From assembly GCA_018816335.1 (NCBI GenBank), contig JAHIVP010000024.1:1-60170 (forward strand): 60,170 nt of DNA, written 5' to 3'. Numbering within the stretch: the stretch's first letter is position 1; every line of letters begins with the position of its first letter. Below are positions 2,086 to 58,993 of the stretch, piece after piece. Source of the DNA: Nanobdellota archaeon. GTDB taxonomy: Archaea; Nanobdellota; Nanobdellia; Pacearchaeales; GW2011-AR1. The notes beneath the pieces were generated by a model. That model did no database searches. It was not told the DNA's origin and saw only the letters and a list, made by a program, of their open reading frames with translations. The position numbers and the translations under genes are program-made.

Positions 2086-2263
2086 AGAATTAGGTTGAAT
2101 TTAGGGTTTTTAAGGTTAATCCTCCTTAGGTATAGGATTAGATTTATTTTCATAATTTTTATAGTGTCCCTCTAACTTTCAACTTTGTTGATAACCCTCC
2201 CTATTTGTGCTTTGTATTTCCTAAAATTAGTATGAAAATTATAAAATTGGATAGAGAATATCT

Positions 2264-6992: not shown

Positions 6993-8366
6993 TTATATCC
7001 TCATCTTTTTTCCAAACTTCTTAGCTAATTTTTGCATTGTTTTTTGATCGAGTTGTCCGCCATTTAAAGCGTCTGCTGACATTCCTGAATTTGCAAATTC
7101 TTTGATTAATTTGTATTGTTTTAATAATGAACGAACATCTGATGATTTACATCCTGAGCCTTTTGCAATTCTTTGTAGTCTTGTTGTTTGTTTTTCTATT
7201 AGTTCTGGTTTTTGTTTTTCTTCTGGAGTCATTGATTGAATACAAAATTTCCATTTTTTCATTTTGTCTTCTTGGGTTCCTAAAAGATTTTCAGGAAGTT
7301 TTGCTTTTCCTAATCCGGGAATTAAACCTGCTATTTTAGATAGAGAGCCCATTGAGTTCATTGATTCTAATTGTTGATAGAAATCATCCATTGTGAATAT
7401 TCCTTTTTCAAGTCTTTTTTGTAGTTTTCCTTGAGTTTGTTTGTCTATTGCTGAGTTAACTTTGTCTAATAGTGTTTCTAGGTCTCCCATTCCTGTTAGT
7501 CTTGAGATAAATGCTGATGGGTTGAATTGTTCAATGTCATTTATTTTTTCACCGTTTGTTATAAATACAACCCCTGCTTCTGCTTCTTTACAAGCTGTTA
7601 GTGCTCCACCACCTTTTGCTGTTGAATCCATTCGTGTTATTATTACTGAATTTACTTTAGATGATTTTTTGAATTCTTCTGCTTGTTGTTTTGCAATTTG
7701 TCCAATGTCTGCTGGCATTACAAGAGTTGAATATGTTGGTTTGATTGTTTTTGTTAAATCTGTTATTTCTTTTACTAATTCTTTGTCTAAGTCATGTCTT
7801 CCTGCTGTGTCTACAATGACTAGATTATATTCTTTTAATTGTTCTTCAAATGATTTGTAGATTTTTATTGGGTCTGTTTCATTGTGATCTATAAAGACTT
7901 TTATTTTGTGTTGTTTTCCGAGTTGTTCTAATTGTTCTCTTGCAGCAGGACGATGAACATCTAAACCTACAATTGCTGTTTTGAATCCTCTTTTTTCATA
8001 GTAGTGTGCTAGTTTTGCTGTTGTTGTTGTTTTTCCTGCTCCGTATAATCCAACTAACACCACAACATTTTGCTTTTTTTTATTAAATTCATATTCTTGT
8101 TTTTCTCCACCTAATAGTTGTGTTAGTTCATCATGCATTATTTTTACTATTTGTTCTTTTTTCTCAACACCTTTTATTTTTTCATCTATAGCTGCTTTTT
8201 TTATTTTTTCTGTTAGTTCAAAAACTAGTTTTACATTTACATCTGCTTCAATTAAAGCTCTTTGTAAATCTTTTATTATAGAATCAATTGTTTTCTTGTC
8301 AACAAACACAGCTCCTGCTATTTTGTCGATTCCTTTCTTTAGTGCGTTTCCTAGACTTTCTAACAT
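6993..8366 (-). CDS. srp54: signal recognition particle protein SRP54
   Basis: N domain, G domain (GLYGAGKTTTTAKLA, DTAGR, TRMDSTAKGG) and a Met-rich M domain. Confidence 0.95.
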   Translation of the reverse strand: MLESLGNALKKGIDKIAGAVFVDKKTIDSIIKDLQRALIEADVNVKLVFELTEKIKKAAIDEKIKGVEKKEQIVKIMHDELTQLLGGEKQEYEFNKKKQNVVVLVGLYGAGKTTTTAKLAHYYEKRGFKTAIVGLDVHRPAAREQLEQLGKQHKIKVFIDHNETDPIKIYKSFEEQLKEYNLVIVDTAGRHDLDKELVKEITDLTKTIKPTYSTLVMPADIGQIAKQQAEEFKKSSKVNSVIITRMDSTAKGGGALTACKEAEAGVVFITNGEKINDIEQFNPSAFISRLTGMGDLETLLDKVNSAIDKQTQGKLQKRLEKGIFTMDDFYQQLESMNSMGSLSKIAGLIPGLGKAKLPENLLGTQEDKMKKWKFCIQSMTPEEKQKPELIEKQTTRLQRIAKGSGCKSSDVRSLLKQYKLIKEFANSGMSADALNGGQLDQKTMQKLAKKFGKKMRI

Positions 8367-12580: not shown

Positions 12581-12683
12581 GCCTCCGTAGCTCAGTGGTA
12601 GAGCAATTGCCTTGTATGTGACTAAGGCTGAAATTAGTCAAAAAGAGAGCAATAGGTCGCAGGTTCAAATCCTGCCGGGGGCT
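12581..12683 (+). tRNA. tRNA-Thr (anticodon TGT) with an intron of ~31 nt after position 37
   Basis: Acceptor GCCTCCG/CGGGGGC, D arm GCTC-AGTGGTA-GAGC, anticodon stem ATTGC...GCAAT. The intron contains the helix GACTAA/TTAGTC. T arm GCAGG-TTCAAAT-CCTGC. Confidence 0.8.
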
Positions 12684-16953: not shown

Positions 16954-18819
16954 ATGTTTTTTATGATATCTAAAAGAGGACAGGTCGCTATATTCATAAT
17001 TATAGCAATTATTATAGTTGCAGGAGTAATTGTGTATTTTCTTGTAAAAGATAGGACAAGTTATTCTAATATTCCTAGTGAATTTCAGCCTGTTGAAGAT
17101 TATTTTCTAAGTTGTATTGAAGATATAGTAAGAAATGGGAAAGATGTTATGGGGACGCAAGGAGGATATATTGAGCCTCCAAATTTTGACCCGGGTAGTG
17201 ATTTTATGCCTTTTTCATCTCAATTAAATTTTTATGGTTGGCCTGTTCCGTATTGGTATTATAAATCAGGTGTCAATATAATTAAAGAGCAAGTTCCATC
17301 GAAAGATGATATGGAGGAAGAGTTGAATAAATATATTCAAGATAGAGTTGGTGATTGTGATTTTGGAGATTTTGTTGTAGAGGGTTTTATTGTTGAAAGA
17401 GAGGAAGGTGTTAGAGTTCAGACAGATATTGGTGTTAATCAAATTTTTGTTAATTTGAATGCTCCTATTAATGTTAATAGAGGAGAGGAGAGTGTTAGAA
17501 TAGAGGAACATGAAGTTCAGTTAGATACAAAGTTTGGTAAGTTTTATGATTTGGCTGTTGATATTTATGATTATGAGAAAGAGGAAATGTTTTTAGAAAA
17601 TTATGCTGTTGATGTTTTGAGATTGTATGCTCCTGTTGATGGTTTTGAAATTCAGTGTAGTCCGTTGATTTGGGCTTTTAATGAAGTAGTTGATGAGGTT
17701 AAACAAGGGTTGAGTGGAAATATGCAAGCAATTAGATTGACAGGAGATTATTATGATGATTCTCATGATTATTTTGTTCAGGATTTGAGAAGTGATGAGG
17801 CTGTTAGATTTTTGTATGATCCAAGTTGGCCTACTAGAATTGAAGTTTGGCCTTCTGATAGTGGGATTTTAATTGCAGAACCTGTAGGAACTCAAGAAGG
17901 TTTAGGAATTTTAGGATTTTGTTATGTTCCTTATCATTATGTTTATGATTTGAATTATCCTGTTTTAGTTCAAATTTATGATGAAGCAGAATTGTTTCAG
18001 TTTCCTGTTGCTGTTATAATTGATAAGAACAGACCTAGGGAGGCTTTGCCTGCAACAGAAGTTAGAGATGCTACAACTGAATTGTGTAAATATAGAAATT
18101 CTAGAATGGAAGTTTATACTTATGATACTGGATTGAATCCTGTTGAAGCAGATATTAGTTTTAAATGTATTTCTGATAGTTGTTATATTGGAAAGACACA
18201 GATTAGTGGTAGTGATGCTAAGTTATCTGAGAATTTTCCTCAGTGTGTGAATGGACATGTTGTTGCTAAAGCAGAGGGTTATGTAAATAAAAAGCATCAG
18301 GTTTCAACTAATGTTGATGGACAGGTTGTTGATATTGTTTTAGATAAAATATATGATATTGGTCTTAATTTGAAGTTGGATGGGAGAGATTCAGATAGTA
18401 TGGCTGTTATTTATTTTCAATCTGAAGATTATTCTGCAACTGTATCTTGGCCTCAGCAAAGAAGTATAAGTTTAGCTCAAGGAGATTATAATGTAACTGT
18501 TTATGTTTATCAAAATTCTAGTTTGAAATTAGAAGGTTATACAACTGAAAAATGTACTGATGTTCCTAGAGAGGGTTTGTTGGGAATGTTTGGTTTAACA
18601 ACTGAAAAGTGTTTTGATATTTCTGTTCCTGATCAAATAGTTTCAATGAGTTTGTCAGGAGGGGGAAAAACTCAAGAATATATTGTTGATACAAATCTTA
18701 GAGATTATAGTGTTATAGAAATATCTGTAGAGAGTATGCCAAAACCTACAACCCTTGAAGAGCTACAAGATAATTATAATTTGTTTGAATATAAAAGAGT
18801 TTATGTTGAATATAAATAA
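16954..18819 (+). CDS. large extracellular protein with a type IV pilin-like (class III) signal peptide
   Basis: N-terminus MFFMISKRGQ-VAIFIIIAIIIVAGVIVYFLV has KRG(Q) followed by ~20 hydrophobic residues, as in archaeal prepilin-peptidase substrates. The remaining ~590 aa are Cys-containing and acidic. No family recognised. Confidence 0.6.
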   Translation: MFFMISKRGQVAIFIIIAIIIVAGVIVYFLVKDRTSYSNIPSEFQPVEDYFLSCIEDIVRNGKDVMGTQGGYIEPPNFDPGSDFMPFSSQLNFYGWPVPYWYYKSGVNIIKEQVPSKDDMEEELNKYIQDRVGDCDFGDFVVEGFIVEREEGVRVQTDIGVNQIFVNLNAPINVNRGEESVRIEEHEVQLDTKFGKFYDLAVDIYDYEKEEMFLENYAVDVLRLYAPVDGFEIQCSPLIWAFNEVVDEVKQGLSGNMQAIRLTGDYYDDSHDYFVQDLRSDEAVRFLYDPSWPTRIEVWPSDSGILIAEPVGTQEGLGILGFCYVPYHYVYDLNYPVLVQIYDEAELFQFPVAVIIDKNRPREALPATEVRDATTELCKYRNSRMEVYTYDTGLNPVEADISFKCISDSCYIGKTQISGSDAKLSENFPQCVNGHVVAKAEGYVNKKHQVSTNVDGQVVDIVLDKIYDIGLNLKLDGRDSDSMAVIYFQSEDYSATVSWPQQRSISLAQGDYNVTVYVYQNSSLKLEGYTTEKCTDVPREGLLGMFGLTTEKCFDISVPDQIVSMSLSGGGKTQEYIVDTNLRDYSVIEISVESMPKPTTLEELQDNYNLFEYKRVYVEYK

Positions 18820-18820
18820 A

Positions 18821-21800
18821 ATGAAAGATATAAAAATAAATAAGATTGGAATTTTTTTAGTTGGAGCTATGTTTATTTTAACTTTGTGTATGCCTTTTAT
18901 TTTTGCAATTGATAGTTCTTCTACAACAACTTCTACATTTCCTAATAATCCTTCTTCAAGTTCAAGTGTTTCTGGGTTTTCAGGAACTAGTCCTTCATAT
19001 TCTAATTTTCCTGATAATAGTCAGTTTTGGCCGATTTATGGGAATCAAGATACTTGTTATGCTACTCAAGATTTTATTTTGAATATTCCCCTAGGTGGTT
19101 GTAGTCCTGCAATTGTTAGGAGTGATTTATTAGAAGAACAACCTGTTCCTGTTTTTTGTAAAGTTGATGCTTTGAAAATTAATCCTTTTGCTGATATTTC
19201 TATGATTAAGGGTGTGACTTTTTCTGCGAGAAGTTATCCTCCTGAAGTTTCTGGAATTGGGTTTCATCCAATAAGAAGTGCTTTAAGAGTTCAAGATCAG
19301 GTTTTAGATACTCCGTTTTATGGAAGTATTGGTTATTTGGTTGTTACATTAAAAAGAATTCCTGCTGAGAGAGATATGCCTGAGTGGATACAAGTTAATT
19401 TGACTGGAAAGTTAGGGTATGATGTTAGTAGATATGCTGGGCCAGGACAAAATGAATATTATTTGGAATTGTTGACTGAAGATGAATGGAAGCAGAAGTA
19501 TAAAGATAATAATTTATTGAAAGGAAAAGCTTATATTCGAGCTGAGTGGATTGAAAATGATGAAGCTGAGATTGGATTGTATGATGAGAATTTACAGCAA
19601 GTTCAAAAAGTTAAGTTGAAACAAGGACAGACTTCTGATGATATTTATATGCCTGGATTTTATTGTAAAGTTGGTTTGAGAATTACATTGAGTGCTATGA
19701 CTTATGCTGATAGAGAAGCAAAGTTAGAAATTGATAATAATATTCAGTGGGTAAGAGTTGGAACAAGATTTTTAGATGATAGATGTAGGGTTTTGGGAAT
19801 TGATGTTGCTAATAAAAAAGTTAGAATTGAGTGTGCTCCTCCTAGAAAATCTTTTGAATTGAAATTGAAAGGTTCAAGTGGAACTGAGATTAATAATGGA
19901 ATTAATAATATTAATGTTAATGTAGGTGAGGTTGTTAATCCTAGTGAGCAAGATGTTACTAAGAGATATTGGTCTGTTTATTCAGGAAGTGTTCCTAAAA
20001 ATTTAGATGCAACAGAAGAGAAGTTTTTGATATTAGTTAAAAATGTTTCTTCAAGTCATATTGAAAATTTAAGAGTTAAACAATCTACTTTGAGTGCTAT
20101 AACTACTAAAATTGAGAGAATTAGTGCGAAGACTCAACAAGAATATTTGAATAAACTTTTAGAGATAAAAGATGTTTTTGGAAATAATTTTGATGTTAAT
20201 AATATTAAACTTTTAAAAGTAGGTGAGAAGGATTCTGAGTCTGGATTTATTTATAATAAACCAACTTCTGGTCCTGATAAAGATTTTTCAGGTGGAAGTA
20301 ATCCTAATGCTGGTAGAATTTTGAATGAGTATTATAATGAAGCAAAAGCAACAGCTGAGAATTTAGATCAGATGTATGGTGGAGAGGCTTGTGTTGAAGG
20401 AAAATGTGGGGAAGTTGGTTTGAGAGAGTTAGTTCAGTTGTCAGGAGCTATTGGAAAACAATATACTAGAAATCAGATTAATCAGAGATTAGGTGAAGGA
20501 TATAATGTTGGTTTAGCAAATGATAATGTTGATACTAGTGATGCTTCGATTCAATTTGAACTTGATGGGAGATTTCATACTGTTAGATTGTTAGATGTTA
20601 AAGATAGTGCTCAGTCTGGGAATTATGGGGATTTTACAATTGTTGAAGGTGGAACAAGTAAACCAAAGAGGATTGGAATTGGGCAGTATATTGATAATCA
20701 AGCATTGATTAAATTAATTGATTTGAAAGATGATAGAGCTACTTTTGAATATTTTGAAAAAGATCAGAATAGTAATGATATTAGGAAGACTTCTGTTGTT
20801 CAGTTATATTCAACTGTTAATATTTTAGGAAATGTTATAACTTTTAATGATGTTAAGTTGAAGAAGGTTGCTAAGGTTAGTGTGAATACAAATTCTCCTG
20901 CTGGTTTTACAGATACTAATTTTACTTTTAAGATTGCTATTGAGAAAAGAGCAATTGAGTTGTCTCCTAATAAGACAAGTAAGTTGATTGATAAGATTAA
21001 TAAGACAGTTCAAAAGTTGGAAGATATTAGTGAGAAATTAGGAGAGGTTGTTAAGGTTATGAAGTTAGCTTGTTTTGCAACATCTACGATTCTAACTGTT
21101 AAGACATTTTTTGAAAATTTAGGTGGAAGAGGAATGGCTAGACAAAAAGTTATGGGTTATTGGTATGATAATTGTGAGCAAGAGTCTCAGGGAGATAAGA
21201 ATTTATTTAATGCTTGTTTGAAAAATAATAATGCTCAGATTGAAGGAGATATTAATAATTATGCTGGGAATTTGCAGTCTGTTAATAATAATTTACAAAA
21301 TATTCAGAATAATAATTTGAATCCTGCTAATGGAGCTGTTGATGGGTCTAAGGCTTTGGCTGCGTATAAGATTTATATGAATAAATATGTTGGAACTACA
21401 ACATTTACTACTGAGAGTGGGAAGACAGTTTCTGTTACTGCTGATATGATTAATAGTGCTGGAACATTGCAAGAATTAAGAGATTTAGAATTAGCTGCTT
21501 TGAATTCTAAAGCTGGAGCAAGCACTGGAAAAGCAGGGAATAATGAAGGCTATGGTGTTGCAAATAGATTGCAGCAAAGAGTTGCTATTGATAATTCTAA
21601 TCAAAATGCTCAGTCAATATTTGGAAATGGGATTAGTGTTGATTTAGATTATAGTGCTAATGGAACTGTTATTAGAGGTTATCATGGGCAGAGTTGGAAG
21701 AATTTTAGAGATGCTGGATTTTCTATTTCTGGAAATGATGGAACTGTTAAAGATGAGACTCCTGCTCAAGCATTGACTGTTGGAGGTCTTTCTTATATTG

Positions 21801-24800
21801 CTATTTTAGGAAAAAGAATTTCTGGTGTTGGAAGTTATAATGCTGTTTCTTGGTATGAAGTTGGAAGTGGTAAATCATTAACTGCTCCTCTTAGTAGAGA
21901 AGAGGTAGATAGAAGGGGATTGAGTAGTATTCAGTTTGCTCGAAGAGATCCTAGTGCTTTGGTTAATCCGTGGAGAAATCCAACAGTAAGATTTTATGAT
22001 TCTGGGAATTTTAAGGGATTGCCTGCTGTTGTTCCTTTAGGAAGGAGATTAGGAGAACAAGAAGGTTGGTATGTTGCTACTATGCCTTTTAGTATTGAGA
22101 ATAAAAATACAAAGGCTTATACTGATGCTGGACAGATGAGGAATTTTTATATTTGTAATGTTGGAGCAAATGGTTTAGAGGAATTTGAAAGTTCTTTAAG
22201 AGATGATCAGTGTCAGTTTATTAATTTAGATATTAGAAAACCTGATAATGTTTTGGGATTGCCTGTTCAGAAATCTAATGAGTTGGTTGATAAATCTGAG
22301 AAAGCTTTGCGTCAGGCTGCTGAAGGTTTTGCTAATATAAAACCTGGTGAAGATGCTTATATAACTATTTTAGATGGAAGATATAAAGTTGGGAAGCCTG
22401 GAAGAAAGAAGGGAGGAAGGTGTCAGGATTTTATGTCTCCTCAAGATTGTTATATTTTGTTTAATGTTTGTGATCCTGTTATTTGTCCTCCATCAAGATG
22501 TGATATGGGTGGGGCTTATCCTGTAGATGATGTTATTCAGACAGGAATTGTTGGGAGTATTGCTTTATGTTTACCAAATATTAAAGAGGGAATTATGGTT
22601 CCTGTTTGTATTTCTGGTATTCATGCTGGTATAGAAGGTTTGACAAGTATTTTGAGGGCAACTAGAGATTGTATGGTTGAGAGTTTGAAGACAGGACAGA
22701 ATATTGGGATATGTGATGAGATTCAATCAATTTATCTTTGTGAGTTTTTATGGAGACAGTTAACTCCAATTATGAATATGTTGATTCCTGCGATGATTGA
22801 AAGTACTTATGGGCAGGGGACAAGGGGAGGAGGGGAATATTTGACTGTTCAGAATGCATGGCAAAATGTCGAGGGTTCAATTGATTATATGACTAACCAA
22901 TATGCTGTAAATGCTTTTAATGCTTTCAAAGCTCGAAGTACTGATGATGTTGGTGGAGAAATATGTAAGATGTTTATATCAGCAAGATATCCTTCTAATA
23001 AAGATTTTTTTGATGCTTTGCTTGAGCCAGAGAGTCCTCATCAATTTTCTGCTTGGTTCCATGAGATTCCTTATAGTGAGGCAACAACTCCTGCAACTTC
23101 ACAATATAAAGTTTATTATCATATTTATGCTGGAAAAAATAGAGGTGTTTATTATTCTGTTTATTTAAGAGATCCTCCTGAATCAAGTCAGTATAATGTT
23201 CAGCCTATGATTGTGGTTGATACTGGATTTATTGGAGTTGGACAGTATGCTGATCAGGCTAAAGATTTTACAGCTCCTAAAGGATATAAGCAATTGTGTG
23301 TTAGAATAGATAATAAGGAAGAGTGTGGGTTTAAGCAAGTTTCAAGTGATTTTGCTTTGAATATTATTAAAGATACTTATGCTAGTGAGCAAGCGACTCA
23401 GAGGGCGACTTCAACTCAGACTTGTGTTGGTGGGACAGCAAGTATTTATGCGTTTTCTTCTTTAAATATTCAGGAAGGAGCACAAGAAGCTTTGAATCCT
23501 GAAATGGGGAAGAGAGGAATTGTTAGGGTTTGTGCAACTGATAATCCTGGGAAATCTACTAATGCTGCTAGATGGACTGATGTTGGTGTTTGTGATGAAC
23601 CTGATATGAAGTGTTGGCTTGATACAGATTCTGTTAAAAATGCTATCACAGCTAGGAATATAGAGAACCAGACTTTGCAAGCTGCTGGATTTAATGTAAC
23701 TCAATATTTTGATTCAACCGGAGTTTATACTCCTCAATATACAAATAGTATGTTGGTTAATTTGAAAATTAAACTTGCTGAAATTAATTTTAATTCAGCT
23801 TATGGTGAGAGATTAGTTAATGAAGGTGGGACAAGTGCTGCTGGTTATTCAGAAACTGAGTTTGGAAGATTGATTAGAGATATTAAGGACTTACAAGAAA
23901 GAGCTCATAATAATAATTATAAGGCTCGGGCAATGTTGTTAGAGTTCCAGGCATATGAGAGAGCTGTTAGAGCTGTTTATTTGAAATATTTTGGTAAAGA
24001 GCATGATGTTGAACATGCTCCTGTTACTTCTGGGGATTCTGCAACTGAGGGGGTCTATGGGTTGAGATCAGAAGATTTTAATGCTGGAGAGCAGAGAGTT
24101 ATTGCTGGAATAAAAATATATTCTGGAGAAGTGTATACTGGTATTTTTATTGTTAGACATGTAAATGAGGAGATTATATATATTACTGATGGTAATTTGC
24201 CTAGAAGTATTGGGAGAGTTATAAATGGTGTATTGGACATTAATATTAATCAAATTCCTGAAAGTAAAATTAATATTAAAAAATATGCTGCAGCAGTTGA
24301 TAATGCTAGAGTAGATTTAAATGTATTAAGTATTGTCTTGGCTGCTTCGAGTAGTTCAAGTGGTGGAAGTTCGACATCAAGTACATCAACAAGTGGAACA
24401 GGAACTCAAACTCCTGAGAATATAATTAAAAGTTTTAATAGGTATCCTTATTTTGATAGTTATAAAAGATTTCTTGTTAATTTAGGAAACGATGAAAATG
24501 GAAATGTTGTTGGAGTTTATGCTTTGGATTCAAGTAGAAATTTGGTTTGGAGTTCTGATGGAAGTGATTTTACAAGTGTTGAAGCTGATATTGCTAATGG
24601 TGATGCTTGGAAGACTCAGTTGAAAGGAGAGTTACTTGATTTGTTTAATAGACAGTTGACTTTGATTCCTAGTGAGATTTTAGTTGGAGATGAATTAATA
24701 GATAAGAATGGAGTATTTTATGTTGTTGATGTTGCTAGAGAGATTGAGGGAACTGTGGGAAGAGTTTTTTTTATACATAAGTTTGATGATAGTAGTAAAA

Positions 24801-24874
24801 CAATTACTTTTAGGTGGGAAGAAGAAGTTGGAATTGATGAATTGTCTCAGATATATGCTAAGAAGATGAATTGA
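18821..24874 (+). CDS. giant secreted Cys-rich protein (~2017 aa)
   Basis: The ATG at 18821 follows the upstream stop by one nt. Signal peptide MKDIKINKIGIFLVGAMFILTLCMPFIFA, Ser/Thr-rich linkers (SSSTTTS; SSSSSGGSSTSSTSTSGTGT), and a Cys-dense segment CQDFMSPQDCYILFNVCDPVICPPSRCD. The tracked 18755 start is a TTG extension. Confidence 0.7.
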   Translation: MKDIKINKIGIFLVGAMFILTLCMPFIFAIDSSSTTTSTFPNNPSSSSSVSGFSGTSPSYSNFPDNSQFWPIYGNQDTCYATQDFILNIPLGGCSPAIVRSDLLEEQPVPVFCKVDALKINPFADISMIKGVTFSARSYPPEVSGIGFHPIRSALRVQDQVLDTPFYGSIGYLVVTLKRIPAERDMPEWIQVNLTGKLGYDVSRYAGPGQNEYYLELLTEDEWKQKYKDNNLLKGKAYIRAEWIENDEAEIGLYDENLQQVQKVKLKQGQTSDDIYMPGFYCKVGLRITLSAMTYADREAKLEIDNNIQWVRVGTRFLDDRCRVLGIDVANKKVRIECAPPRKSFELKLKGSSGTEINNGINNINVNVGEVVNPSEQDVTKRYWSVYSGSVPKNLDATEEKFLILVKNVSSSHIENLRVKQSTLSAITTKIERISAKTQQEYLNKLLEIKDVFGNNFDVNNIKLLKVGEKDSESGFIYNKPTSGPDKDFSGGSNPNAGRILNEYYNEAKATAENLDQMYGGEACVEGKCGEVGLRELVQLSGAIGKQYTRNQINQRLGEGYNVGLANDNVDTSDASIQFELDGRFHTVRLLDVKDSAQSGNYGDFTIVEGGTSKPKRIGIGQYIDNQALIKLIDLKDDRATFEYFEKDQNSNDIRKTSVVQLYSTVNILGNVITFNDVKLKKVAKVSVNTNSPAGFTDTNFTFKIAIEKRAIELSPNKTSKLIDKINKTVQKLEDISEKLGEVVKVMKLACFATSTILTVKTFFENLGGRGMARQKVMGYWYDNCEQESQGDKNLFNACLKNNNAQIEGDINNYAGNLQSVNNNLQNIQNNNLNPANGAVDGSKALAAYKIYMNKYVGTTTFTTESGKTVSVTADMINSAGTLQELRDLELAALNSKAGASTGKAGNNEGYGVANRLQQRVAIDNSNQNAQSIFGNGISVDLDYSANGTVIRGYHGQSWKNFRDAGFSISGNDGTVKDETPAQALTVGGLSYIAILGKRISGVGSYNAVSWYEVGSGKSLTAPLSREEVDRRGLSSIQFARRDPSALVNPWRNPTVRFYDSGNFKGLPAVVPLGRRLGEQEGWYVATMPFSIENKNTKAYTDAGQMRNFYICNVGANGLEEFESSLRDDQCQFINLDIRKPDNVLGLPVQKSNELVDKSEKALRQAAEGFANIKPGEDAYITILDGRYKVGKPGRKKGGRCQDFMSPQDCYILFNVCDPVICPPSRCDMGGAYPVDDVIQTGIVGSIALCLPNIKEGIMVPVCISGIHAGIEGLTSILRATRDCMVESLKTGQNIGICDEIQSIYLCEFLWRQLTPIMNMLIPAMIESTYGQGTRGGGEYLTVQNAWQNVEGSIDYMTNQYAVNAFNAFKARSTDDVGGEICKMFISARYPSNKDFFDALLEPESPHQFSAWFHEIPYSEATTPATSQYKVYYHIYAGKNRGVYYSVYLRDPPESSQYNVQPMIVVDTGFIGVGQYADQAKDFTAPKGYKQLCVRIDNKEECGFKQVSSDFALNIIKDTYASEQATQRATSTQTCVGGTASIYAFSSLNIQEGAQEALNPEMGKRGIVRVCATDNPGKSTNAARWTDVGVCDEPDMKCWLDTDSVKNAITARNIENQTLQAAGFNVTQYFDSTGVYTPQYTNSMLVNLKIKLAEINFNSAYGERLVNEGGTSAAGYSETEFGRLIRDIKDLQERAHNNNYKARAMLLEFQAYERAVRAVYLKYFGKEHDVEHAPVTSGDSATEGVYGLRSEDFNAGEQRVIAGIKIYSGEVYTGIFIVRHVNEEIIYITDGNLPRSIGRVINGVLDININQIPESKINIKKYAAAVDNARVDLNVLSIVLAASSSSSGGSSTSSTSTSGTGTQTPENIIKSFNRYPYFDSYKRFLVNLGNDENGNVVGVYALDSSRNLVWSSDGSDFTSVEADIANGDAWKTQLKGELLDLFNRQLTLIPSEILVGDELIDKNGVFYVVDVAREIEGTVGRVFFIHKFDDSSKTITFRWEEEVGIDELSQIYAKKMN

Positions 24875-32699: not shown

Positions 32700-33518
32700 A
32701 TGGAAGATTTGTTAGGTAGGTTATTGGAAACAGCAGAAGATATTGTTTTAATGAGAGATGTTCCTGCTTTAAATTCAGACCAAGTTAGTTTTGCTGTTCC
32801 TTTGAGAGGTAAATTAGCAAGGGAAGTTTTTGATGAATCTTTAACACATGATAGAGGATTACCTGAGTTTCAGAGATATTGGAGTTTTGATAAATCTAGC
32901 GGACATATTAAAGGTTTGAGTGTTTATTTAGGAACAAGATTAGATAGTAGAGTTTTGAGACCTGAAGGATTAAGAATGTTGGGTGTTAGAGAATTACAAA
33001 GTTTAGGGGGTAAAGGAAAATTAGCTGATGGGTTTTGGAGAGATGCAGGAATTGTTGTTTATTCTGCTGGAACTCCAAATCTTAATACTGCGAGAGCATT
33101 GTGTCAAAAGGGAGTTGAGGGAGAATTGGATTTGCCTTTGATATGGGGTTTTTCTGATTTGGATTATGTTCCAAAAGATGGTGGGGTTGGAATAGTTTCT
33201 ATTGAAAATCCTCAGAGGGTTATTTTAGGAGAAGAAGCTGTTAAAGTTCTTGAGGATATTGAAGCTTATCAAGGAAATAAAAAAGGTGCTTGTAGGTTGA
33301 GTCGGGGCGGGGGTGGTGATTGGGGTGCCGACTGGGTTGTTTTTGCTGATTCGGACGCTGGCTGTCTGGTGGATTGGGTTTGTGGAGAAGCCACGCGCGA
33401 AAAATTACTCCAGGCTTATAATGGATTGAGTGAGAGAGTTTATGGAGATCAAATTGAAGAGTTGCAAACAAAAAGGGATTCCTCAAGACATGAGTTTTTA
33501 GCTGAATTAGATAGATAA
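32700..33518 (+). CDS. DGR-type variable (target) protein; Lys-poor orphan H
   Basis: 272-aa ATG ORF. Residues ..GACRLSRGGGGDWGADWVVFADSDAGCLVDW.. are encoded by the variable repeat 33285-33372. The matching template encodes GACRLNRNRDGDWNANWDDFANSNANCLMA. Confidence 0.8.
   Translation: MEDLLGRLLETAEDIVLMRDVPALNSDQVSFAVPLRGKLAREVFDESLTHDRGLPEFQRYWSFDKSSGHIKGLSVYLGTRLDSRVLRPEGLRMLGVRELQSLGGKGKLADGFWRDAGIVVYSAGTPNLNTARALCQKGVEGELDLPLIWGFSDLDYVPKDGGVGIVSIENPQRVILGEEAVKVLEDIEAYQGNKKGACRLSRGGGGDWGADWVVFADSDAGCLVDWVCGEATREKLLQAYNGLSERVYGDQIEELQTKRDSSRHEFLAELDR
33285..33380 (+). repeat. variable repeat (VR) of a DGR-like cassette
   Basis: Aligned by hand to 33741-33836 (offset 456). Over 33285-33372 all 72 positions that are not A in the partner copy are identical. 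The 16 mismatches are all partner-A to G (14) or T (2). Confidence 0.8.
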
Positions 33519-33740
33519 TTATAAAAACTTATTTTTCTTTTTATGATTCCTAGCCATATGGTTAGGCCACACGTTGACTAATTAGTCCATCATTAAGGTT
33601 TATTTTAAGGCATGAAATTCAACTGCGACAATTAGTAGTGATGATCTTTTGAGGGATTGTGAATATTGAAGCAGTGGTGCTCTGTCATATTGACACTAGG
33701 AGGCTCCTTTTTAGGAGAGATTAGTTGGCTACAAAGTTGG

Positions 33741-33836
33741 GGTGCTTGTAGGTTGAATCGGAACAGGGATGGTGATTGGAATGCCAACTGGGATGATTTT
33801 GCTAATTCGAACGCTAACTGTCTAATGGCTTAAATA
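33741..33836 (+). repeat. template repeat (TR) of a DGR-like cassette (non-coding)
   Basis: This is the A-rich copy of the VR. In the VR reading frame it carries six AAY (Asn) codons and ends in TAA. It lies in an ORF-free region 223 nt downstream of the target-gene stop. Confidence 0.8.
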
Positions 33837-34090
33837 TGGTTAGGATTTTTTTAATAATCTTTTGTCTTTATTTAGTTGTCATATAAGTTTAAATTCTAAA
33901 GTGTAATATGAATATGTCAAATTTTGATTATACAATTTGATAAAAAATATAGAAATGTAAAGGGGTGATTCAAATGGCAAAGAAAAAAGGTGCTAAGAAG
34001 AAGAAATAGTGTTTAGGTATTAATTAATATTATATTTTTTATTTTTATTTTTCGTTATGTTTTTATATTCTTGTTATTTATTTTAAAATT

Positions 34091-34300
34091 ATGGAATTAT
34101 TTGAGATGCCTGATGATCCGAAAGATAGAAAGAGAAGATTTGTTCTTGGAGCTTATGCTTTGGCTGGGTTGGGAGTCAGTGATTCATCTGCAAGGAGATT
34201 ATTAAGTTGTAAATTTAGCGGTGCTTTGAGAGTTGATATTGGAGTGTTTAGGAGAAAATTAAGTACTTTATATGGTGTTGAATTGGGAGATAGATTTTAA
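34091..34300 (+). CDS. Lys-poor orphan protein I (69 aa)
   Basis: ATG ORF ~255 nt downstream of the TR, rich in Arg/Leu/Gly. Short, so uncertain. Confidence 0.4.
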   Translation: MELFEMPDDPKDRKRRFVLGAYALAGLGVSDSSARRLLSCKFSGALRVDIGVFRRKLSTLYGVELGDRF

Positions 34301-34461
34301 TAAAGCTGGGAAGTTGATATAGAAATATTTATAAATAGTTGTTTTTTAGATGAGGAATGGTAATTGATACAAGTCAAGGATTAGGAGTTTATTTACAATA
34401 AGAATTAGGAGGAGAGTTAGTTGGTAATTCTAAAGATTCTGTTGCAGATGGATCAAGTAAT

Positions 34462-34677
34462 ATGGTTAGAGATGTTAGAGGATCAACTCTTCCAAAAGTT
34501 ACAAGATTAGTTAGGGGTTTCTATGGGGTCCTAGGATTTTCGGATCATCCAGTTGTGGATCCAGTAGATCAAGGACATTTGCCTTTACAAGATTCTGAAG
34601 AAAGAGGGAGAAGTATAACTGTAAGTTATGATTTAGAGATAGTTCGTGTTACTTGTTCTGCTATTGGTGTGAGATAA
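34462..34677 (+). CDS. Lys-poor orphan protein J (71 aa)
   Basis: ATG ORF, rich in Val/Arg/Gly/Asp. No clear TATA at the usual spacing. Uncertain. Confidence 0.35.
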   Translation: MVRDVRGSTLPKVTRLVRGFYGVLGFSDHPVVDPVDQGHLPLQDSEERGRSITVSYDLEIVRVTCSAIGVR

Positions 34678-34869: not shown

Positions 34870-35217
34870 ATGAATGAAGAGATTAAGAAAGATTTAGAGG
34901 AAAATGCTAAGGAGTATTATAAGAATGCTTTGGAAGCTGAGGTTAGAGGAGAATATAATACTTCTGTAACTTTATTTTTTAAAACTATTTCATCTTTGTG
35001 TGATTTATTCATTGTTGTTAAAAAAGGGATTATGCCTTCAAATCATTCAGAGAGATTTAGAATACTTGAAACTAATTTTTATGAGATTTATGTTTTGATG
35101 GATAAAGCTTTTCCTGTTTATCAGGAAAGTTATAAAATAAAATTAGAGAAATCTTCATCTGAAAAATTAAAAAATGATGCAAAAAAATTATTTGAATTAC
35201 TTGATATCAAAGTCTAG
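34870..35217 (+). CDS. HEPN-like helical protein (putative partner of the downstream nucleotidyltransferase)
   Basis: 115-aa all-helical pattern (..YYKNALEAEVRGEYNTSVTLFFKTISSLCDLF....SNHSERFRIL..). It overlaps a minimal-nucleotidyltransferase gene, as in HEPN/MNT pairs. Confidence 0.45.
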   Translation: MNEEIKKDLEENAKEYYKNALEAEVRGEYNTSVTLFFKTISSLCDLFIVVKKGIMPSNHSERFRILETNFYEIYVLMDKAFPVYQESYKIKLEKSSSEKLKNDAKKLFELLDIKV

Positions 35218-35749
35218 AAAGTTTGCTAAGAAGTATAAGATTTTTGATATTATTTTGTATGGGTCTGCTGTAAAAGGCAAATTAGAACCCAGAGACATAG
35301 ATATTCTTATAATCTTAGAAAATGAAGATTTGGATAAGAGAGATTTATCTTATGAATTCAAGAATATTTTAAAAGAGAAAATTAAAGAGGTGGATATTAA
35401 AACAATAAAGTTATCAGAATTTTTTGACTCTAAATTTCTTGCTAGACAGGGTGTTTTAATTGAGGGTTATAGTTTAGTAGATAAAGTTTCTTTATCTGGG
35501 AAATTTGGTTTTGATGGTTTTACTCTTTTTACATATGATTTAAAAAATTTAGATCATAATAAAAAAACTCAGTTTGTATATGCGCTTTTGGGAAGAAAGG
35601 GTCAAGGGTTAATAAAAAAATTGAATGCTGTTAAGTTAAGTAGGGGTGCTTTTTTGATTCCTATTGAAAATAGTAATATTTTTGAAGATTTTCTTGATAA
35701 TTGGAAGATAAATTATGTAAAAAAGAAAACGTTGGTATCAAAATTATAA
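35174..35749 (+). CDS. minimal nucleotidyltransferase (MNT) domain protein
   Basis: LYGSAVKGKLEPRDIDILI matches the GSx10-11(D/E)xD pol-beta-fold signature. Confidence 0.7.
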   Translation: MMQKNYLNYLISKSRKFAKKYKIFDIILYGSAVKGKLEPRDIDILIILENEDLDKRDLSYEFKNILKEKIKEVDIKTIKLSEFFDSKFLARQGVLIEGYSLVDKVSLSGKFGFDGFTLFTYDLKNLDHNKKTQFVYALLGRKGQGLIKKLNAVKLSRGAFLIPIENSNIFEDFLDNWKINYVKKKTLVSKL

Positions 35750-36557: not shown

Positions 36558-37603
36558 AAATACTTTACGGATTAGCAGGAGAGGGTTTTGGCCATAGTTC
36601 TAGGGCTAAGGCAATTATTCCTTATTTAGAGAAAAGAGGACATAAAGTTAAAGTTGTAACTTATGGGCAAGCAGTTGATGTTTTGAAAAAAGAAAAATAT
36701 GATGTGTTTGAGATCAAGGGATGTGAGTTTGTTTTTGAAAAAGGGAGATTGAAGAAGTCTAAGACTTTGTATAAGAGTTGGAATAATTTCTTTGATAATA
36801 TTAAGAAGAGTAAAGAAATTTATGATTTGATGTTAGAGGATTTTGATTTATTGATTTCAGATATGGAGCCTTTAGTTTCTATTTTGTCTAATTGGTATAG
36901 GTTGCCTTTGTTAAGTTTAGATAATCAGCATAGGTTGACTAATTTGGATTTGAATGTTCCTGAAGAATATAAAATAGATTTTGAGATGGCTAGATTTGTT
37001 GTTAATTTATTTTGTAGGTCTGCTGATTGGTATATAATTGTTAATTTTGCTAATTCTAAAGTTAATAAGAAATGGAAAGAGATAACTTTTCAGGTTCCTC
37101 CAATTATTAGGCCAGATGTTAGAAAGTTGAAACCTAAAAAGAAGGATTATGTTCTTGTTTATTTAAGTAAGAAAGATAGGAAGATTGTTAATTTGTTGAA
37201 GAAGATTGATGATAATTTTGTTGTTTATGGGATGGATAAAGAAGGGAAGGAAGGGAATATTGTTTATCATAAAAAAGGGTTTGGATTTGTTAATGATTTG
37301 AAAGATTGTAAGGCGATTGTTGCTTCTGCTGGATTTAGTTTGATTGCAGAGGCGTTGTATTTGAATAAGCCGTATTTTGCTTTGCCATTGAAAGGACAGT
37401 TTGAGCAGATGTTGAATGCTATTGAGTTAAGGGGGGCGGGGTTTGGAGATTATAGTGTTGGTTTGAAAAACAGAGAAGTTGAAGATTTTTTATCTGATTT
37501 AAAGAAATATGAAATTAAGTTGAAGAAGTATAAACCTGATTATGATTTGTTATTTAAGAAACTTGATGTTGTTATTAGGAAGGTTAAGAATAATAAAAGT
37601 TAA
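36554..37603 (+). CDS. GT-B fold glycosyltransferase (MurG/UDP-glycosyltransferase-like)
   Basis: MKILYGLAGEGFGHSSRAKAI.. is a N-terminal Gly-rich loop. C-terminal motifs ..ASAGFSLIAEALYLNKP...P...QFEQ..NA. ATGA overlap with the CYTH gene. Confidence 0.65.
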   Translation: MKILYGLAGEGFGHSSRAKAIIPYLEKRGHKVKVVTYGQAVDVLKKEKYDVFEIKGCEFVFEKGRLKKSKTLYKSWNNFFDNIKKSKEIYDLMLEDFDLLISDMEPLVSILSNWYRLPLLSLDNQHRLTNLDLNVPEEYKIDFEMARFVVNLFCRSADWYIIVNFANSKVNKKWKEITFQVPPIIRPDVRKLKPKKKDYVLVYLSKKDRKIVNLLKKIDDNFVVYGMDKEGKEGNIVYHKKGFGFVNDLKDCKAIVASAGFSLIAEALYLNKPYFALPLKGQFEQMLNAIELRGAGFGDYSVGLKNREVEDFLSDLKKYEIKLKKYKPDYDLLFKKLDVVIRKVKNNKS

Positions 37604-37609
37604 ATAGTT

Positions 37610-37939
37610 ATGTTATATGGTTATATCATGATTGATAGAACAGAAGGGATTAATTGTGAAGATACTATGTCTACTGGGGGTTTTGGTGGTGGAGGGGTGT
37701 TTTGGGAGGCACTTAATGATTTAGGGAGACAGGGAAGGGTGGTGGTTTGCGGTAGGAATGTTTCTAGGGTTGCTTATGAGCAGGATAAAGGGGTTTATGA
37801 TGGGATGCAAAGAAAATATGAAGAAGCAGTGAGAAAGATGGTAGAAGCAAGCAAAGCAGCAGCAGGTGCGAGGGTGATACCTACTTCTTTATGTAGGAGG
37901 AGTGGGACAGAATATGCAAGACAAGTGGCAAGATGCTAG
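37610..37939 (+). CDS. Lys-poor orphan protein K (up to 109 aa; start uncertain)
   Basis: ORF with a very G-rich, C-poor coding strand (e.g. 27 G and 3 C in 37681-37740, counted by hand). Alternative ATGs at 37628 and 37667. Confidence 0.5.
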   Translation: MLYGYIMIDRTEGINCEDTMSTGGFGGGGVFWEALNDLGRQGRVVVCGRNVSRVAYEQDKGVYDGMQRKYEEAVRKMVEASKAAAGARVIPTSLCRRSGTEYARQVARC

Positions 37940-38054
37940 AAGATTGGCAGGATTGAATCATAGTGATGAGATGTATGAGAGAAATAGAGCTGGTTCTGTT
38001 TAATCTTATTTATAGTAGATAAAAATTTATATAGTTTGATAATTATTGATTATT

Positions 38055-38336
38055 ATGGGAAAATTATCTACACTGGGATTTGTTCCAGCTATTTTGAAAG
38101 GAGTTGGGAGATTTAATACTCTTGAAATTTCTGGTGACAGAAGAGGTGTGGCTCCTTTAAGTCGTGGTAATTTTTGTCAAAGTACATCTGTTCCTGCTCT
38201 TGGAAGGAGATTGTTTGCTAGGGTTGAGGCTGCACGAAGAGCAGTAATAGTTTATGATGTTTCTATTATTGGGATTGTTGAGAGAGTTTTTAGTGAAGGT
38301 GGAGAATATTCTAGGAAGTTTTTTGATTATAATTAA
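38055..38336 (+). CDS. Lys-poor orphan protein L (93 aa)
   Basis: The first ATG is at 38055 (the tracked start 38046 is TTG). TATA-like aaaaatttatatagtt lies ~20-33 nt upstream. Confidence 0.5.
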   Translation: MGKLSTLGFVPAILKGVGRFNTLEISGDRRGVAPLSRGNFCQSTSVPALGRRLFARVEAARRAVIVYDVSIIGIVERVFSEGGEYSRKFFDYN

Positions 38337-38348
38337 ATTTATATATTT
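38335..38348 (+). promoter_or_regulatory. TATA-box-like element upstream of the HIT gene
   Basis: aaatttatatattt lies 19-32 nt upstream of the ATG at 38367. Confidence 0.4.
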
Positions 38349-38366
38349 CTTTTATTCTGGAGTTAT

Positions 38367-38774
38367 ATGAAAGACTGCTTATTTTGTAAGATAATTAAGA
38401 AGGAAATTCCTAGTGAGATTATTTATGAAGATGAAGCAGTTGTGGTTTTTTTAGATATTAATCCTGTGAATAAAGGACATGCTCTTGTTGTGCCTAAGAA
38501 ACATTTTGAAACTTCACTTGATTTGCCTGATTCTATTTTATGTGATGTTATTCAGATTGCGAAGAGGGTTGCGATGAAACAAATGAAAGAGTTGAAGTGT
38601 GGAGGAGTGAATTATATTATGAATAATTTTAAAGCTGCTGGGCAGGAAGTTCCTCATGCTCACCTACATGTTATTCCTAGATTTGATGAAGATGATTTGG
38701 TTTTTTTGCAGGGGAATAAATCTGGATATGAAGATGATATTGGTGAGTTTAGAGAGAAGTTGAATATAGTTTAA
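38367..38774 (+). CDS. HIT-family (histidine triad) nucleotide hydrolase
   Basis: CLFCKII.., [12 protein letters not shown] and the histidine triad HAHLHVIPR. Confidence 0.85.
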
Positions 38775-58047: not shown

Positions 58048-58993
58048 TTGTGCACGCAGGTGACATATGTCACCCCCTAAAATAATTTAGCAAAATCAAA
58101 GTAAACCTGAGCAGGAGTTTTATTACTAAGGCTCTTATGTCCTCTGAAATGATTATATCTCATCCTAAATTCATTAATATCTTTACAGAAAGATAATTCT
58201 CTTTTAATTGTCTGAAATAATCTCTCTACCTTTCCACAAGTGGTTGGACTATGAACAGCACTACGAATATGCTTTATCCCTCTACGCCTGCACCATCTAT
58301 CGAACTTTGAATGTTTACTCTTTGATCCATAAGCAGATCCATTATCTGATAATATTTGTTTAGGTTTACCATGAATTTTTATTAGATCATCTAAGATTTT
58401 AGTCACAACTCTTGTTGTGACTCTATTAACTGCTAATAATCCAATACTATAACGAGAACAATCATCAACCACAGATATTAACCATTTATCTTTAACCTTT
58501 TGATCGCTGTGGTCTATTTGCCATAATGAGTTAGGATGTTTTCTTTCAAATCTGATATAATTATTTCTCTTCTTCTTTCTTTTAGATGGACTTGTAAGAT
58601 TATGTTTATTTAGAATTTTGTTTACAGACCAATGACTTACATTAACATAATCTTGAATTCTCTCTTGTCCCCATCCTGTTTTTTGTCTAATTTTAACGAT
58701 TTTGTTTTCTATTTCAGAAGTTATTTTTGAGTATGTTGTCTTCGGTGCTCTAGATTTATCACTTAAATCCCAATTGTCTTCATTTAACTTTTTGCTCCAA
58801 CGATATAACGTTCTTAATGTTACTTCGTAATCAAACTTTGCTTTGAGTATCCTCTTACATTGATTGTAAGAATGATGTTTTATTCTTAGTTTAAAGAACT
58901 CTTTTCTTATTTCTTCTTTTTTCATTAGATTCGCAAGTTATCACTTGCGAACTAATTTTCGGTTAGCTACTGACATATGTCAGTTGCTTCTAC
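58048..58993 (-). mobile_element. insertion sequence (~0.95 kb) encoding an rve-type DDE transposase
   Basis: Bounded by the 16-bp direct repeat attgttgttgattttt (58032-58047 and 58994-59009). Both ends carry the palindromic core TGACATATGTCA (58060-58071 and 58971-58982). Confidence 0.75.
58077..58925 (-). CDS. DDE transposase, integrase-core (rve) type, IS481/IS3-superfamily-like
   Basis: N-terminal HTH region, then LWQIDHSD (D), ILSDNGSAY (D) and GKVERLFQT (E) with typical spacing. Confidence 0.8.
   Translation of the reverse strand: MKKEEIRKEFFKLRIKHHSYNQCKRILKAKFDYEVTLRTLYRWSKKLNEDNWDLSDKSRAPKTTYSKITSEIENKIVKIRQKTGWGQERIQDYVNVSHWSVNKILNKHNLTSPSKRKKKRNNYIRFERKHPNSLWQIDHSDQKVKDKWLISVVDDCSRYSIGLLAVNRVTTRVVTKILDDLIKIHGKPKQILSDNGSAYGSKSKHSKFDRWCRRRGIKHIRSAVHSPTTCGKVERLFQTIKRELSFCKDINEFRMRYNHFRGHKSLSNKTPAQVYFDFAKLF

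Follow-up and report, generated by a model that had tools for sequence, protein, structure and literature searches.

A diversity-generating retroelement cassette with an RT-16 template-RNA unit and no neighboring reverse transcriptase in a DPANN archaeon

Introduction

To our knowledge, diversity-generating retroelements (DGRs) constitute the sole prokaryotic systems for targeted protein hypermutation. They are especially common in DPANN archaea and in bacteria of the Candidate Phyla Radiation, and those of DPANN archaea are well known. Here we describe a DGR cassette in a 60,170-nucleotide stretch of DNA from a Nanobdellota archaeon (contig JAHIVP010000024.1; the whole stretch is called the window below), in which a protein-coding gene carries a variable repeat (VR) and the non-coding DNA beyond it carries the matching template repeat (TR), directly preceded by the structured RNA known as RT-16. 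The repeats, the RNA and the family to which the target protein belongs together make it almost certain that this is a genuine DGR cassette, although no reverse transcriptase (RT) accompanies it. The features of the cassette, all on the forward strand, are as follows.

32700..33518 (+): target gene, 272 aa, a member of a family of ~260-280 aa that recurs as a DGR target in DPANN archaea
33285..33372 (+): VR, with 16 differences from the TR, all at TR adenines; weak homology to ~33380
33381..33395 (+): target-site hairpin TGTGG-A-GAA-G-CCACG, within codons for C-G-E-A-T; impaired
33519..33527 (+): TATA-like box TTATAAAAA, a putative archaeal promoter with its center ~26 nt upstream of RT-16 nucleotide 1
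33549..33737 (+): RT-16 RNA (RF03019), found by the Rfam covariance model, with an AGUA/GAA sarcin-ricin-like loop at 33634-33637 and 33661-33663
33741..33828 (+): TR, non-coding, with seven AAY codons; weak homology to ~33836
33826..33844 (+): 3′ strand of the closing helix (TGGCTTAA + ATATGGTTAGG), which pairs with 33549-33569
33846..33852 (+): run of seven Ts directly past the closing strand, read from the sequence as a putative archaeal terminator of a ~300-nt template RNA

The template and variable repeats

Compared base by base, the VR and TR align without gaps over 88 nt with 16 mismatches, every one of which falls on a TR adenine (14 A>G and 2 A>T). The TR holds 22 adenines in total, six of them the same in the VR, and it agrees with the VR at each of its 66 non-adenine positions; by the hypergeometric distribution, 16 mismatches would all land on the 22 adenines with a probability of 5.2e-13. 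It was this restriction that led a prior sequence-only reading of the window to propose a DGR-type repeat pair, and our re-alignment agrees with it, with 0/66 mismatches at non-adenine template positions, where a spread of differences would have spoken against a DGR. Two of its counts needed correction: the 72 G, C, and T positions given as identical are in fact the total of identical positions, of which 66 are non-adenine, and the six AAY codons reported in the TR are seven on recount. A weaker continuation of the likeness to ~33380/33836, with four extra A-site differences and one at a non-A position, was seen again, and the placement of the upstream copy within the ORF (open reading frame) was found to be in frame, the VR comprising codons 196-225 of 272. 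The first 21 nt of the repeat occur twice in the window against a chance expectation of 0.01, and an adenine-tolerant scan of both strands of the window found no further copy.

Fifteen of the 16 differences change an amino acid, and they lie at positions 1 and 2 of AAY, GAT, AGG, and ATG codons, while the adenine-free TR codons encode the scaffold residues G196, R202, W208, W212, and S218, each of which is at least 90% conserved in the target family. The TR itself is non-coding and, in the frame of the VR, runs into a stop codon at 33831-33833. It starts 3 nt past the end of RT-16, and 222 nt separate it from the stop codon of the target gene.

RT-16 as the 5′ part of the template RNA

The Rfam RT-16 model matches 33549-33737 at 91.0 bits (gathering score 50, E = 1.4e-14), and the match is complete, spanning model positions 1-158 of 158. 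Weinberg et al. 2017 presented RT-16, without giving it a function, among 19 motifs that lie close to RT genes; the same study tied another of these motifs, RT-10, to the Bordetella phage DGR and speculated that others might be parts of DGRs (PMC5737381). In the literature after 2017, RT-16 is confined to Rfam tables and to a scan for 3D motifs that noted its sarcin-ricin-like loop (PMC13085918). Added here to RT-16 as published are its place directly before a TR, its start ~26 nt past a TATA-like box, and its pairing with the 3′ flank of the TR; in the window, moreover, and unlike the published examples near RT genes, it has no RT nearby.

The arrangement recurs well beyond the window. A scan for the RT-16 core pattern over GTDB species genomes returned 18 loci, 15 of them confirmed as RT-16 by Rfam, and these come almost all from Pace-, Woese-, Nano-, and Micrarchaeota. 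The RT that follows RT-16, used as a query, has at least 582 relatives; of the 40 RT loci closest to it, 31 carry an RT-16 that reaches the gathering threshold. When 31 RT-16 loci, all from DPANN archaea, were analyzed for repeats, an adenine-restricted VR was found in 29, mostly upstream and on the same strand; the detected TR starts no more than ~6 nt from the RT-16 3′ end in 27 of these 29, and mismatches outside adenines number zero in 23 loci and one or two in the other six. Because a TR with adenine-only VR mismatches follows RT-16 in 29/31 loci, RT-16 makes up the 5′ portion of this clade's template RNA and can now be read as the 5′ scaffold of that RNA in a large archaeal DGR clade. 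The substitution spectrum across the clade (A>G 239, A>T 92, A>C 5, such that A>T makes up 27%) also indicates that the strong G bias of the window is normal for this clade of RTs and is no sign of deamination.

How the template RNA may be delimited is suggested by its two ends. The first 21 nt of RT-16 (33549-33569) pair with 33826-33844, thereby enclosing the RT-16 core and the TR, and the resulting 19-bp closing helix is present in both the minimum-free-energy and the centroid folds of the predicted 298-nt RNA (33549-33846). The same complementarity between the first nucleotides of RT-16 and a segment a few nucleotides past the TR is found in other loci, with both sides covarying: the 5′/3′ pair CCTAGCCATAT/ATATGGTTAGG of the window is replaced elsewhere by CCTCGGTC/GACCGAGG, TCTTAG/CTAAGA, CCTGGCTATGC/GCATAGTCAGG, and CTCCGGGTGCAA/TTGCATTCCGGAG. 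Duplexes between cognate 5′ and 3′ strands are correspondingly more stable than non-cognate ones (-16.6 vs -10.7 kcal/mol, n=14, p=5e-5; in a larger set, -10.7 vs -6.6, n=29, p=1e-5). By analogy, the closing helix is probably the counterpart of the "cPRT Stop" duplex of Bordetella, to which it would be functionally equivalent. In the Bordetella phage DGR this duplex forms between avd and Sp and is essential, and similar duplexes are predicted in 207 of 278 Avd-containing DGRs (bioRxiv 10.1101/2023.10.23.563531).

On the 5′ side, inspection of 29 loci shows in most of them an A/T-rich, TATA-like element that lies -24 to -31 relative to the first RT-16 nucleotide; a scan for promoters and terminators of the bacterial type was uninformative for an archaeon. 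On the 3′ side, runs of at least five Ts after the closing strand occur in 5/13 cassettes without an RT vs 3/50 RT-linked cassettes (Fisher p = 0.007, with some of the loci being near-duplicates). An Rfam family that was previously an orphan thereby gains a functional reading, as an RNA that would start at a promoter and be closed by a covarying helix with the 3′ flank of the TR.

Past the T run lie ~240 nt of very AT-rich non-coding DNA (33853-34090; GC ~0.19-0.25), which hold an 11-codon ORF (MAKKKGAKKKK) preceded by GGGGTGAT. A second, degenerate cassette at 34036-34480, suggested by eye from a resemblance to the RT-16 3′ end and the closing strand, was rejected, its alignment score of 41 comparing with a mean of 37 and a maximum of 58 for shuffled sequences. 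The ORF at 34091-34300 was likewise ruled out as a remnant of a target, because the target-family hidden Markov model (HMM) matches only the reading frame of the TR itself. A permissive Rfam scan of window positions 37400-38450, a region of odd GC-rich ORFs, returned nothing credible.

The target protein

The target is a 272-residue protein in which the VR is internal, followed by a 47-residue tail, with a long C-terminal helix (residues 233-271) past the VR; reading of the sequence revealed no signal peptide or transmembrane segment. At word-index sensitivity, the protein matches itself alone among 5.8 billion sequences. An exhaustive HMMER search, by comparison, recovered 94 cluster representatives of a family of proteins of ~260-280 aa, with the consensus SGVxRLxRxxxGxWxAxWxxLxxSxxxGRVDWVCGEATR over the VR. 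Within this family, the columns at adenine-bearing TR codons are more variable than the others (2.45 vs 1.03 bits, p = 7e-5), and its HMM matches the gene just upstream of RT-16, TR, and RT in at least 10 loci. The nearest homologues with usable context are themselves targets in RT-carrying DGR cassettes, designated L310 and L313 in our numbering of loci: L310 has two tandem targets and an intact RVT_1 RT, and L313 has one target and an RT split into two ORFs. The RT-16 that precedes the TR, the recurrence of the target family and its variability at adenine codons thus all back the proposal of a DGR repeat pair with which the sequence-only reading began.

That reading had also found no recognizable family for the target, and it was borne out: neither the target nor the small downstream ORFs match any Pfam, NCBIfam, or PHROG model, 40 members of the family gave no match to FGE-sulfatase or any other lectin Pfam family, and a profile of the same 40 members found nothing relevant among PDB sequences. 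C-type-lectin scaffolds are thought to be near-universal for VRs, and a C-type-lectin or Ig-like scaffold had been suggested as the fold to look for. The AlphaFold2 (AF2) model of the target is confident (predicted local distance difference test score, pLDDT, 94.2; predicted TM score, pTM, 0.89), but gave no significant Foldseek match to such a scaffold or to anything else, the best E values being 0.24 in the PDB (TM ~0.15) and 0.18 in BFVD, with TM scores of 0.2 or less. On the strength of the model, the VR scaffold may be either a very divergent lectin-like fold or something new. In either case, the family represents a recurrent DGR target with a confident predicted structure and no detectable similarity to C-type-lectin scaffolds.

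The target-site hairpin

Most cassettes of the clade have a GC-rich hairpin 10-17 nt past the VR, with a stem of 5-8 bp and a triloop (GAA or GGA) closed by a C-G pair, lying in codons for x-G-E-A-x. The stems covary (GTGGC/GCCAC, GCGCC/GGCGC, ACGCC/GGCGT, GTCGC/GCGAC, GTTGGC/GCCAAC), and the hairpin corresponds to the hairpin/cruciform of Bordetella, also noted for AvpA (PMC5006420). In the window, a synonymous change of GGC to GGA places A33386 opposite G33390, leaving five stem pairs and a five-base loop. The C-G closure of the loop is intact in 8/8 examined relatives of the window's own subfamily, such that the broken pair is found in the window hairpin alone. The window hairpin folds no better than shuffled sequence (z = 0.27), and it is homologous to the covarying GAA-triloop hairpins of its relatives. 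More broadly, the canonical hairpin is kept in ~6/12 RT-less vs 34/42 RT-linked cassettes.

Absence of a reverse transcriptase and of Avd

In a contig of 124,378 bp, the window occupies positions 12951-73120. The search for an RT covered contig positions 3144-81875, a span of 78.7 kb that extends 42.5 kb to the upstream side of the cassette and 35 kb to its downstream side. Of the genes called in this range none matched RVT_1, and a motif scan turned up no RT-like setting for [YF]xDD; when four cognate RTs were compared by tblastn with the six frames of the window and of 18.5 kb of flanks, the best E was 0.64. Where an RT is present in related loci, its start codon lies ~8-45 nt past the closing strand. 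The same interval in the window is AT-rich non-coding DNA, and no RT remnant is detectable at 33853-34090, the slot in which relatives carry the RT. Because neither the window nor the 78.7 kb of contig holds an RT, "DGR cassette" is a warranted description of the locus and "live DGR" is not.

Nor is the window exceptional in this respect. A cognate RT (motif IRYVDDF) follows the TR in 10/15 GTDB loci, and an RT is present in 28/42 metagenome loci; RT-less cassettes with informative flanks are L018, L020, L022, L026, L012, L187, L198, L200, L202, L215, and L223. Because a sizeable fraction of cassettes has no adjacent RT, surveys anchored on the RT undercount DGR targets and are blind to RT loss or to use in trans.

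Efforts to find a partner RT in the same community were equally unrewarding. Scanning metagenomes for RT-16 brought up three loci of the same Joint Genome Institute (JGI) samples, L197, L199, and L215, none of them assignable to this organism; L215 is RT-less and appears to be the L018 cassette, as judged only by identical TR/VR statistics. When the RT fragment of L316, a locus found in the window's own assembly, served as a protein query, it retrieved nothing but short ORFs; the nearest of these, L317, comes from another sample and is disrupted by an insertion. By glycyl-tRNA synthetase (GlyRS), the closest relatives of the host are metagenome-assembled genomes (MAGs) of Pacearchaeota and Woesearchaeota, and a synteny test for RT loss was uninformative, as the closest GlyRS loci (at most 70% identity) shared neither gene order nor the cassette.

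The accessory protein Avd is missing too: with the Avd-like ORF of L074 as query, tblastn had no match in the window at E values as high as 1. Among the fetched relative loci (window excluded), jackhmmer detected Avd in bacterial loci, L057, L070, and L074 only. In L057 and L070, both from Aenigmatarchaeota, an Avd-like gene at ~2258-3014 lies between the RT-16/TR region and the RT. In the RT-16 loci of Pace-, Woese-, and Nanoarchaeota that were checked (L009-L106), none was detected except the Avd-like ORF of L074. Accessory-protein use therefore seems to vary within one RT/RNA clade.

RT decay and cassette arrays in relatives

Related loci present a range of states between an intact RT and none. 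L316 (6001-8394; European Nucleotide Archive (ENA) assembly ERZ27247128, contig k141_367118) is arranged as two tandem targets of the window's family, RT-16, TR, closing strand, and an RT ORF, of which the first 102 residues alone are RT-like; its two VRs are different and clean, with 9 and 13 adenine changes and 0 other mismatches. Genes for a type IV secretion system (T4SS) pilin and a TraC-like protein, a ParE toxin, and methylases adjoin it, which suggests a mobile element. In L317 (5483-5883), the RT frame is broken after residue ~178 by a short hairpin-containing insertion and ends soon after; the insertion may be a mobile element, and the adjoining ORF, by eye only, may be an IS200/IS605-type transposase. 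Elsewhere the RT is divided between two ORFs that overlap and use different frames (L313 at 7130-8312, L314, L315, L295 at 2501-3399, L013, L017, L015, L195, L224, and L225). The split in L313-L315 is no sequencing error, because it is identical in three independent assemblies, and may mean that the frameshift is programmed, that the RT consists of two pieces, or that the three share a pseudogene.

Cassettes also occur in multiples. L220 (2434-5110) is a tandem RT-16/TR array with a 62-aa RT fragment after its first cassette and a full RT after its second, and L205 (49-1115) has two RT-16 cores 1 kb apart. In L036, L055, and L060, the RT-16/TR unit lies on the strand opposite to the RT, and the unit therefore needs no co-transcription with it. 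One Pacearchaeota MAG contains both an RT-less cassette (L012) and an RT-linked one (L295), with the same 5′ strand, on different contigs. As a group, RT-less cassettes show a non-adenine mismatch rate of ~1.4% vs ~0.35%.

Two observations bear on whether the VR of the window varies in nature. The assemblies ENA ERZ27247128 and JGI 3300014613 are 100% identical over 2225 nt, VR included, although they may represent the same population, and the 90% protein cluster of the target has one member.

Comparison with known systems

One comparison is with the DGR of Bordetella phage BPP-1 (mtd VR/avd/TR/Sp/brt). Shared with it are the adenine-specific divergence from TR to VR, a template rich in AAY whose scaffold codons are free of adenine, a GC-rich hairpin element (impaired in the window) on the 3′ side of the VR and close to it, the pairing of upstream and downstream flanks of the TR in the template RNA, and a structured RNA with a sarcin-ricin-like loop beside the TR, which is RT-10 there and RT-16 here (PMC5737381, PMC13085918). 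Unlike BPP-1, the window has neither an RT in cis nor Avd; its large structured RNA is 5′ rather than 3′ of the TR; and the 5′ strand of its closing helix is at the start of the RNA, with ~190 nt between it and the TR, and does not directly adjoin the TR as in BPP-1. Its hairpin has a GAA triloop and lies within coding sequence, its VR is internal with the 47-residue tail, and its target has no recognizable C-type lectin fold.

The Nanoarchaeota/DPANN DGRs with AvpA-type targets (PDB 5IOO; PMC5006420) have in common with the window a DPANN host, a target-site hairpin in coding sequence, and a target of ~256-272 aa in which some 45-50 residues lie between the VR and the C-terminus and a helical tail follows the VR; unlike them, the window lacks an RT. 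In one locus, L201, the gene for an AvpA homologue (E = 2e-71 to 5IOO) is directly followed by an RT-16-type core motif and by an RT that belongs to the same clade. Homology of the window target to AvpA was nonetheless rejected: hhalign against L201 gave a probability of 0.4%, the profile search of PDB sequences was empty, and the AvpA motifs GxxVVVYAH, HPxxxPFxG, and RFxGV are absent from the target, leaving a loose resemblance in G-I-V-V-Y, size, VR position, and tail. Among the 50 Foldseek matches listed, 5IOO does not appear, and none has an E below 0.24. The targets of L016, L019, and L074, also considered as candidates, are not AvpA. AvpA itself was beyond the reach of sequence-based prediction, so the window target may yet have a very divergent lectin-like fold.

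A third point of reference is provided by DGRs with remote targets, which established that DGR components need not be contiguous and can act in trans (Wu et al. 2018, PMC5758913). In those systems the TR and the RT remain together and the target gene alone lies elsewhere, whereas in the window the target is accompanied by the TR and its RNA scaffold, and the RT is the absent part.

An orphaned cassette or a template used in trans

How might the cassette have worked? The target gene would hold the VR and the target-site hairpin, and downstream of it a separate non-coding unit of ~300 nt would comprise the TATA box, RT-16, the TR, a 3′ strand that pairs with the 5′ end of the RNA, and the oligo-T run. 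An RT would copy the template RNA, misincorporating opposite template adenines, and the resulting cDNA would then replace the VR. In the reading that we favor, to which we would give about an even chance, the RT that wrote the VR was subsequently lost from the locus, leaving a recently orphaned cassette that would by now diversify poorly or not at all. The adenine-only mismatches, the RT-16 match, the covariation of closing helix and target hairpin, the lack of an RT, and the hairpin lesion are observed; that the unit is transcribed, bound by an RT, and used in homing, and when and how the RT was lost, is what we infer. The intact state of the TR, of RT-16, and of the closing helix would require that the loss be recent. 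We count for orphaned status the lack of an RT in 78.7 kb, the hairpin lesion unique to the window, the frequent decay of RTs beside intact cassettes, the higher rate of non-adenine mismatches and lower frequency of canonical hairpins in RT-less cassettes, and the identical VR in two assemblies.

Several observations weigh against orphaning. The cis-acting parts of the template RNA are all intact (RT-16 at 91 bits, the 19-bp helix, the TATA-like box, the seven Ts, and 0/66 non-adenine mismatches), and some one-fifth to one-quarter of RT-16 cassettes are RT-less and yet mostly pristine; if all of these were relics, RTs would have to be lost very quickly. An enrichment of oligo-T runs is seen directly behind RT-less cassettes, the opposite-strand units illustrate that the RT need not be co-transcribed, and the hairpin lesion is a single synonymous base that could be tolerated or polymorphic. 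Moreover, the RT search covered ~8% of a genome of ~1 Mb, a size assumed from typical DPANN genomes.

Many of the same observations would be accommodated if the cassette were a live satellite, that is, an autonomous template-RNA gene served in trans by an RT elsewhere in the genome or on a co-resident element, with the VR still diversifying. We regard this as a serious possibility that falls somewhat short of an even chance. The RNA unit is intact, with 0/66 non-adenine mismatches, RT-less cassettes recur in mostly pristine form (L187, L200, L202, L215, and L223 have 0-1 non-adenine mismatches), and oligo-T runs are enriched after them (p = 0.007). Some cassettes are antisense to their own RT, L220 and L205 are tandem multi-cassette arrays, and L316 combines a truncated RT with two different clean VRs. 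There is precedent in the avd-TR-brt of Bordetella, which functions in trans from a plasmid (PMC5758913), and a potential natural instance in the MAG in which L012 and L295 share a 5′ strand on separate contigs. In this sole same-genome example, however, the RT of L295 is frameshifted and the RT-less L012 already has 2 non-adenine mismatches. Use in trans must also be reconciled with the lack of an RT in 78.7 kb, with a target-site hairpin damaged in the window alone, and with a VR identical in two assemblies and a single-member 90% cluster, although the latter may reflect a single population.

If RT-less cassettes are indeed served in trans, they would amount to a distributed DGR architecture that finders anchored on the RT miss wholly. 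The broader proposal, that RT-less RT-16/TR cassettes are autonomous template-RNA genes (TATA, closing helix, oligo-T) used in trans and that, in addition, the target scaffold is neither C-type lectin nor Ig, is a tentative one that we think more apt to fail than to hold.

A complete DGR with a cis RT overlooked in the window because it is highly divergent, split, or unannotated appears very improbable. Split RT ORFs in relatives do mean that a naive ORF scan could miss an RT, but the six-frame tblastn search with four cognate RTs over the window and 18.5 kb of flanks found nothing below E = 0.6; no [YF]xDD has an RT-like context, no gene on contig 3144-81875 matches RVT_1, and the expected slot 8-45 nt past the closing strand is AT-rich non-coding DNA. 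Finally, that the repeats are no DGR product at all, but a decaying duplication or the outcome of another adenine-specific process such as deamination-type editing, is barely credible: 14/16 A>G changes would be expected of adenine deamination, but adenine restriction has P = 5e-13 under random placement, the 2 A>T here and 27% A>T clade-wide are changes that deamination does not give, the downstream copy directly follows a DGR-associated structured RNA, and the changes affect the first two positions of AAY codons set within a conserved scaffold, such that the RT-16 context and the family-wide pattern effectively refute it.

Other features of the window and its flank

Directly downstream of the cassette, at 34870-35749 (+), a 115-aa helical ORF overlaps an MntA-like nucleotidyltransferase gene; the pair looks like a HEPN/MNT-type toxin-antitoxin system, the first ORF being without a significant family match. 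An rve-family integrase/transposase (HTH_32 + rve) is encoded at 58077-58925 (-), and an identical protein is found on several short contigs from the same samples. At 12581-12683 (+), Rfam reports a tRNA of 103 nt (64.8 bits) that ARAGORN does not, which is probably an intron-containing archaeal tRNA.

Giant ORFs of ~2,030 aa with no Pfam match occur both in the window (18755-24874, +) and upstream on the contig (829-6903 of L006); we take these two to be possible large surface proteins, like those of other DPANN genomes. At the contig start, again upstream of the window (L006 1-326), lies an 874-aa RadA/Rad51 with an intein that bears a LAGLIDADG endonuclease domain.

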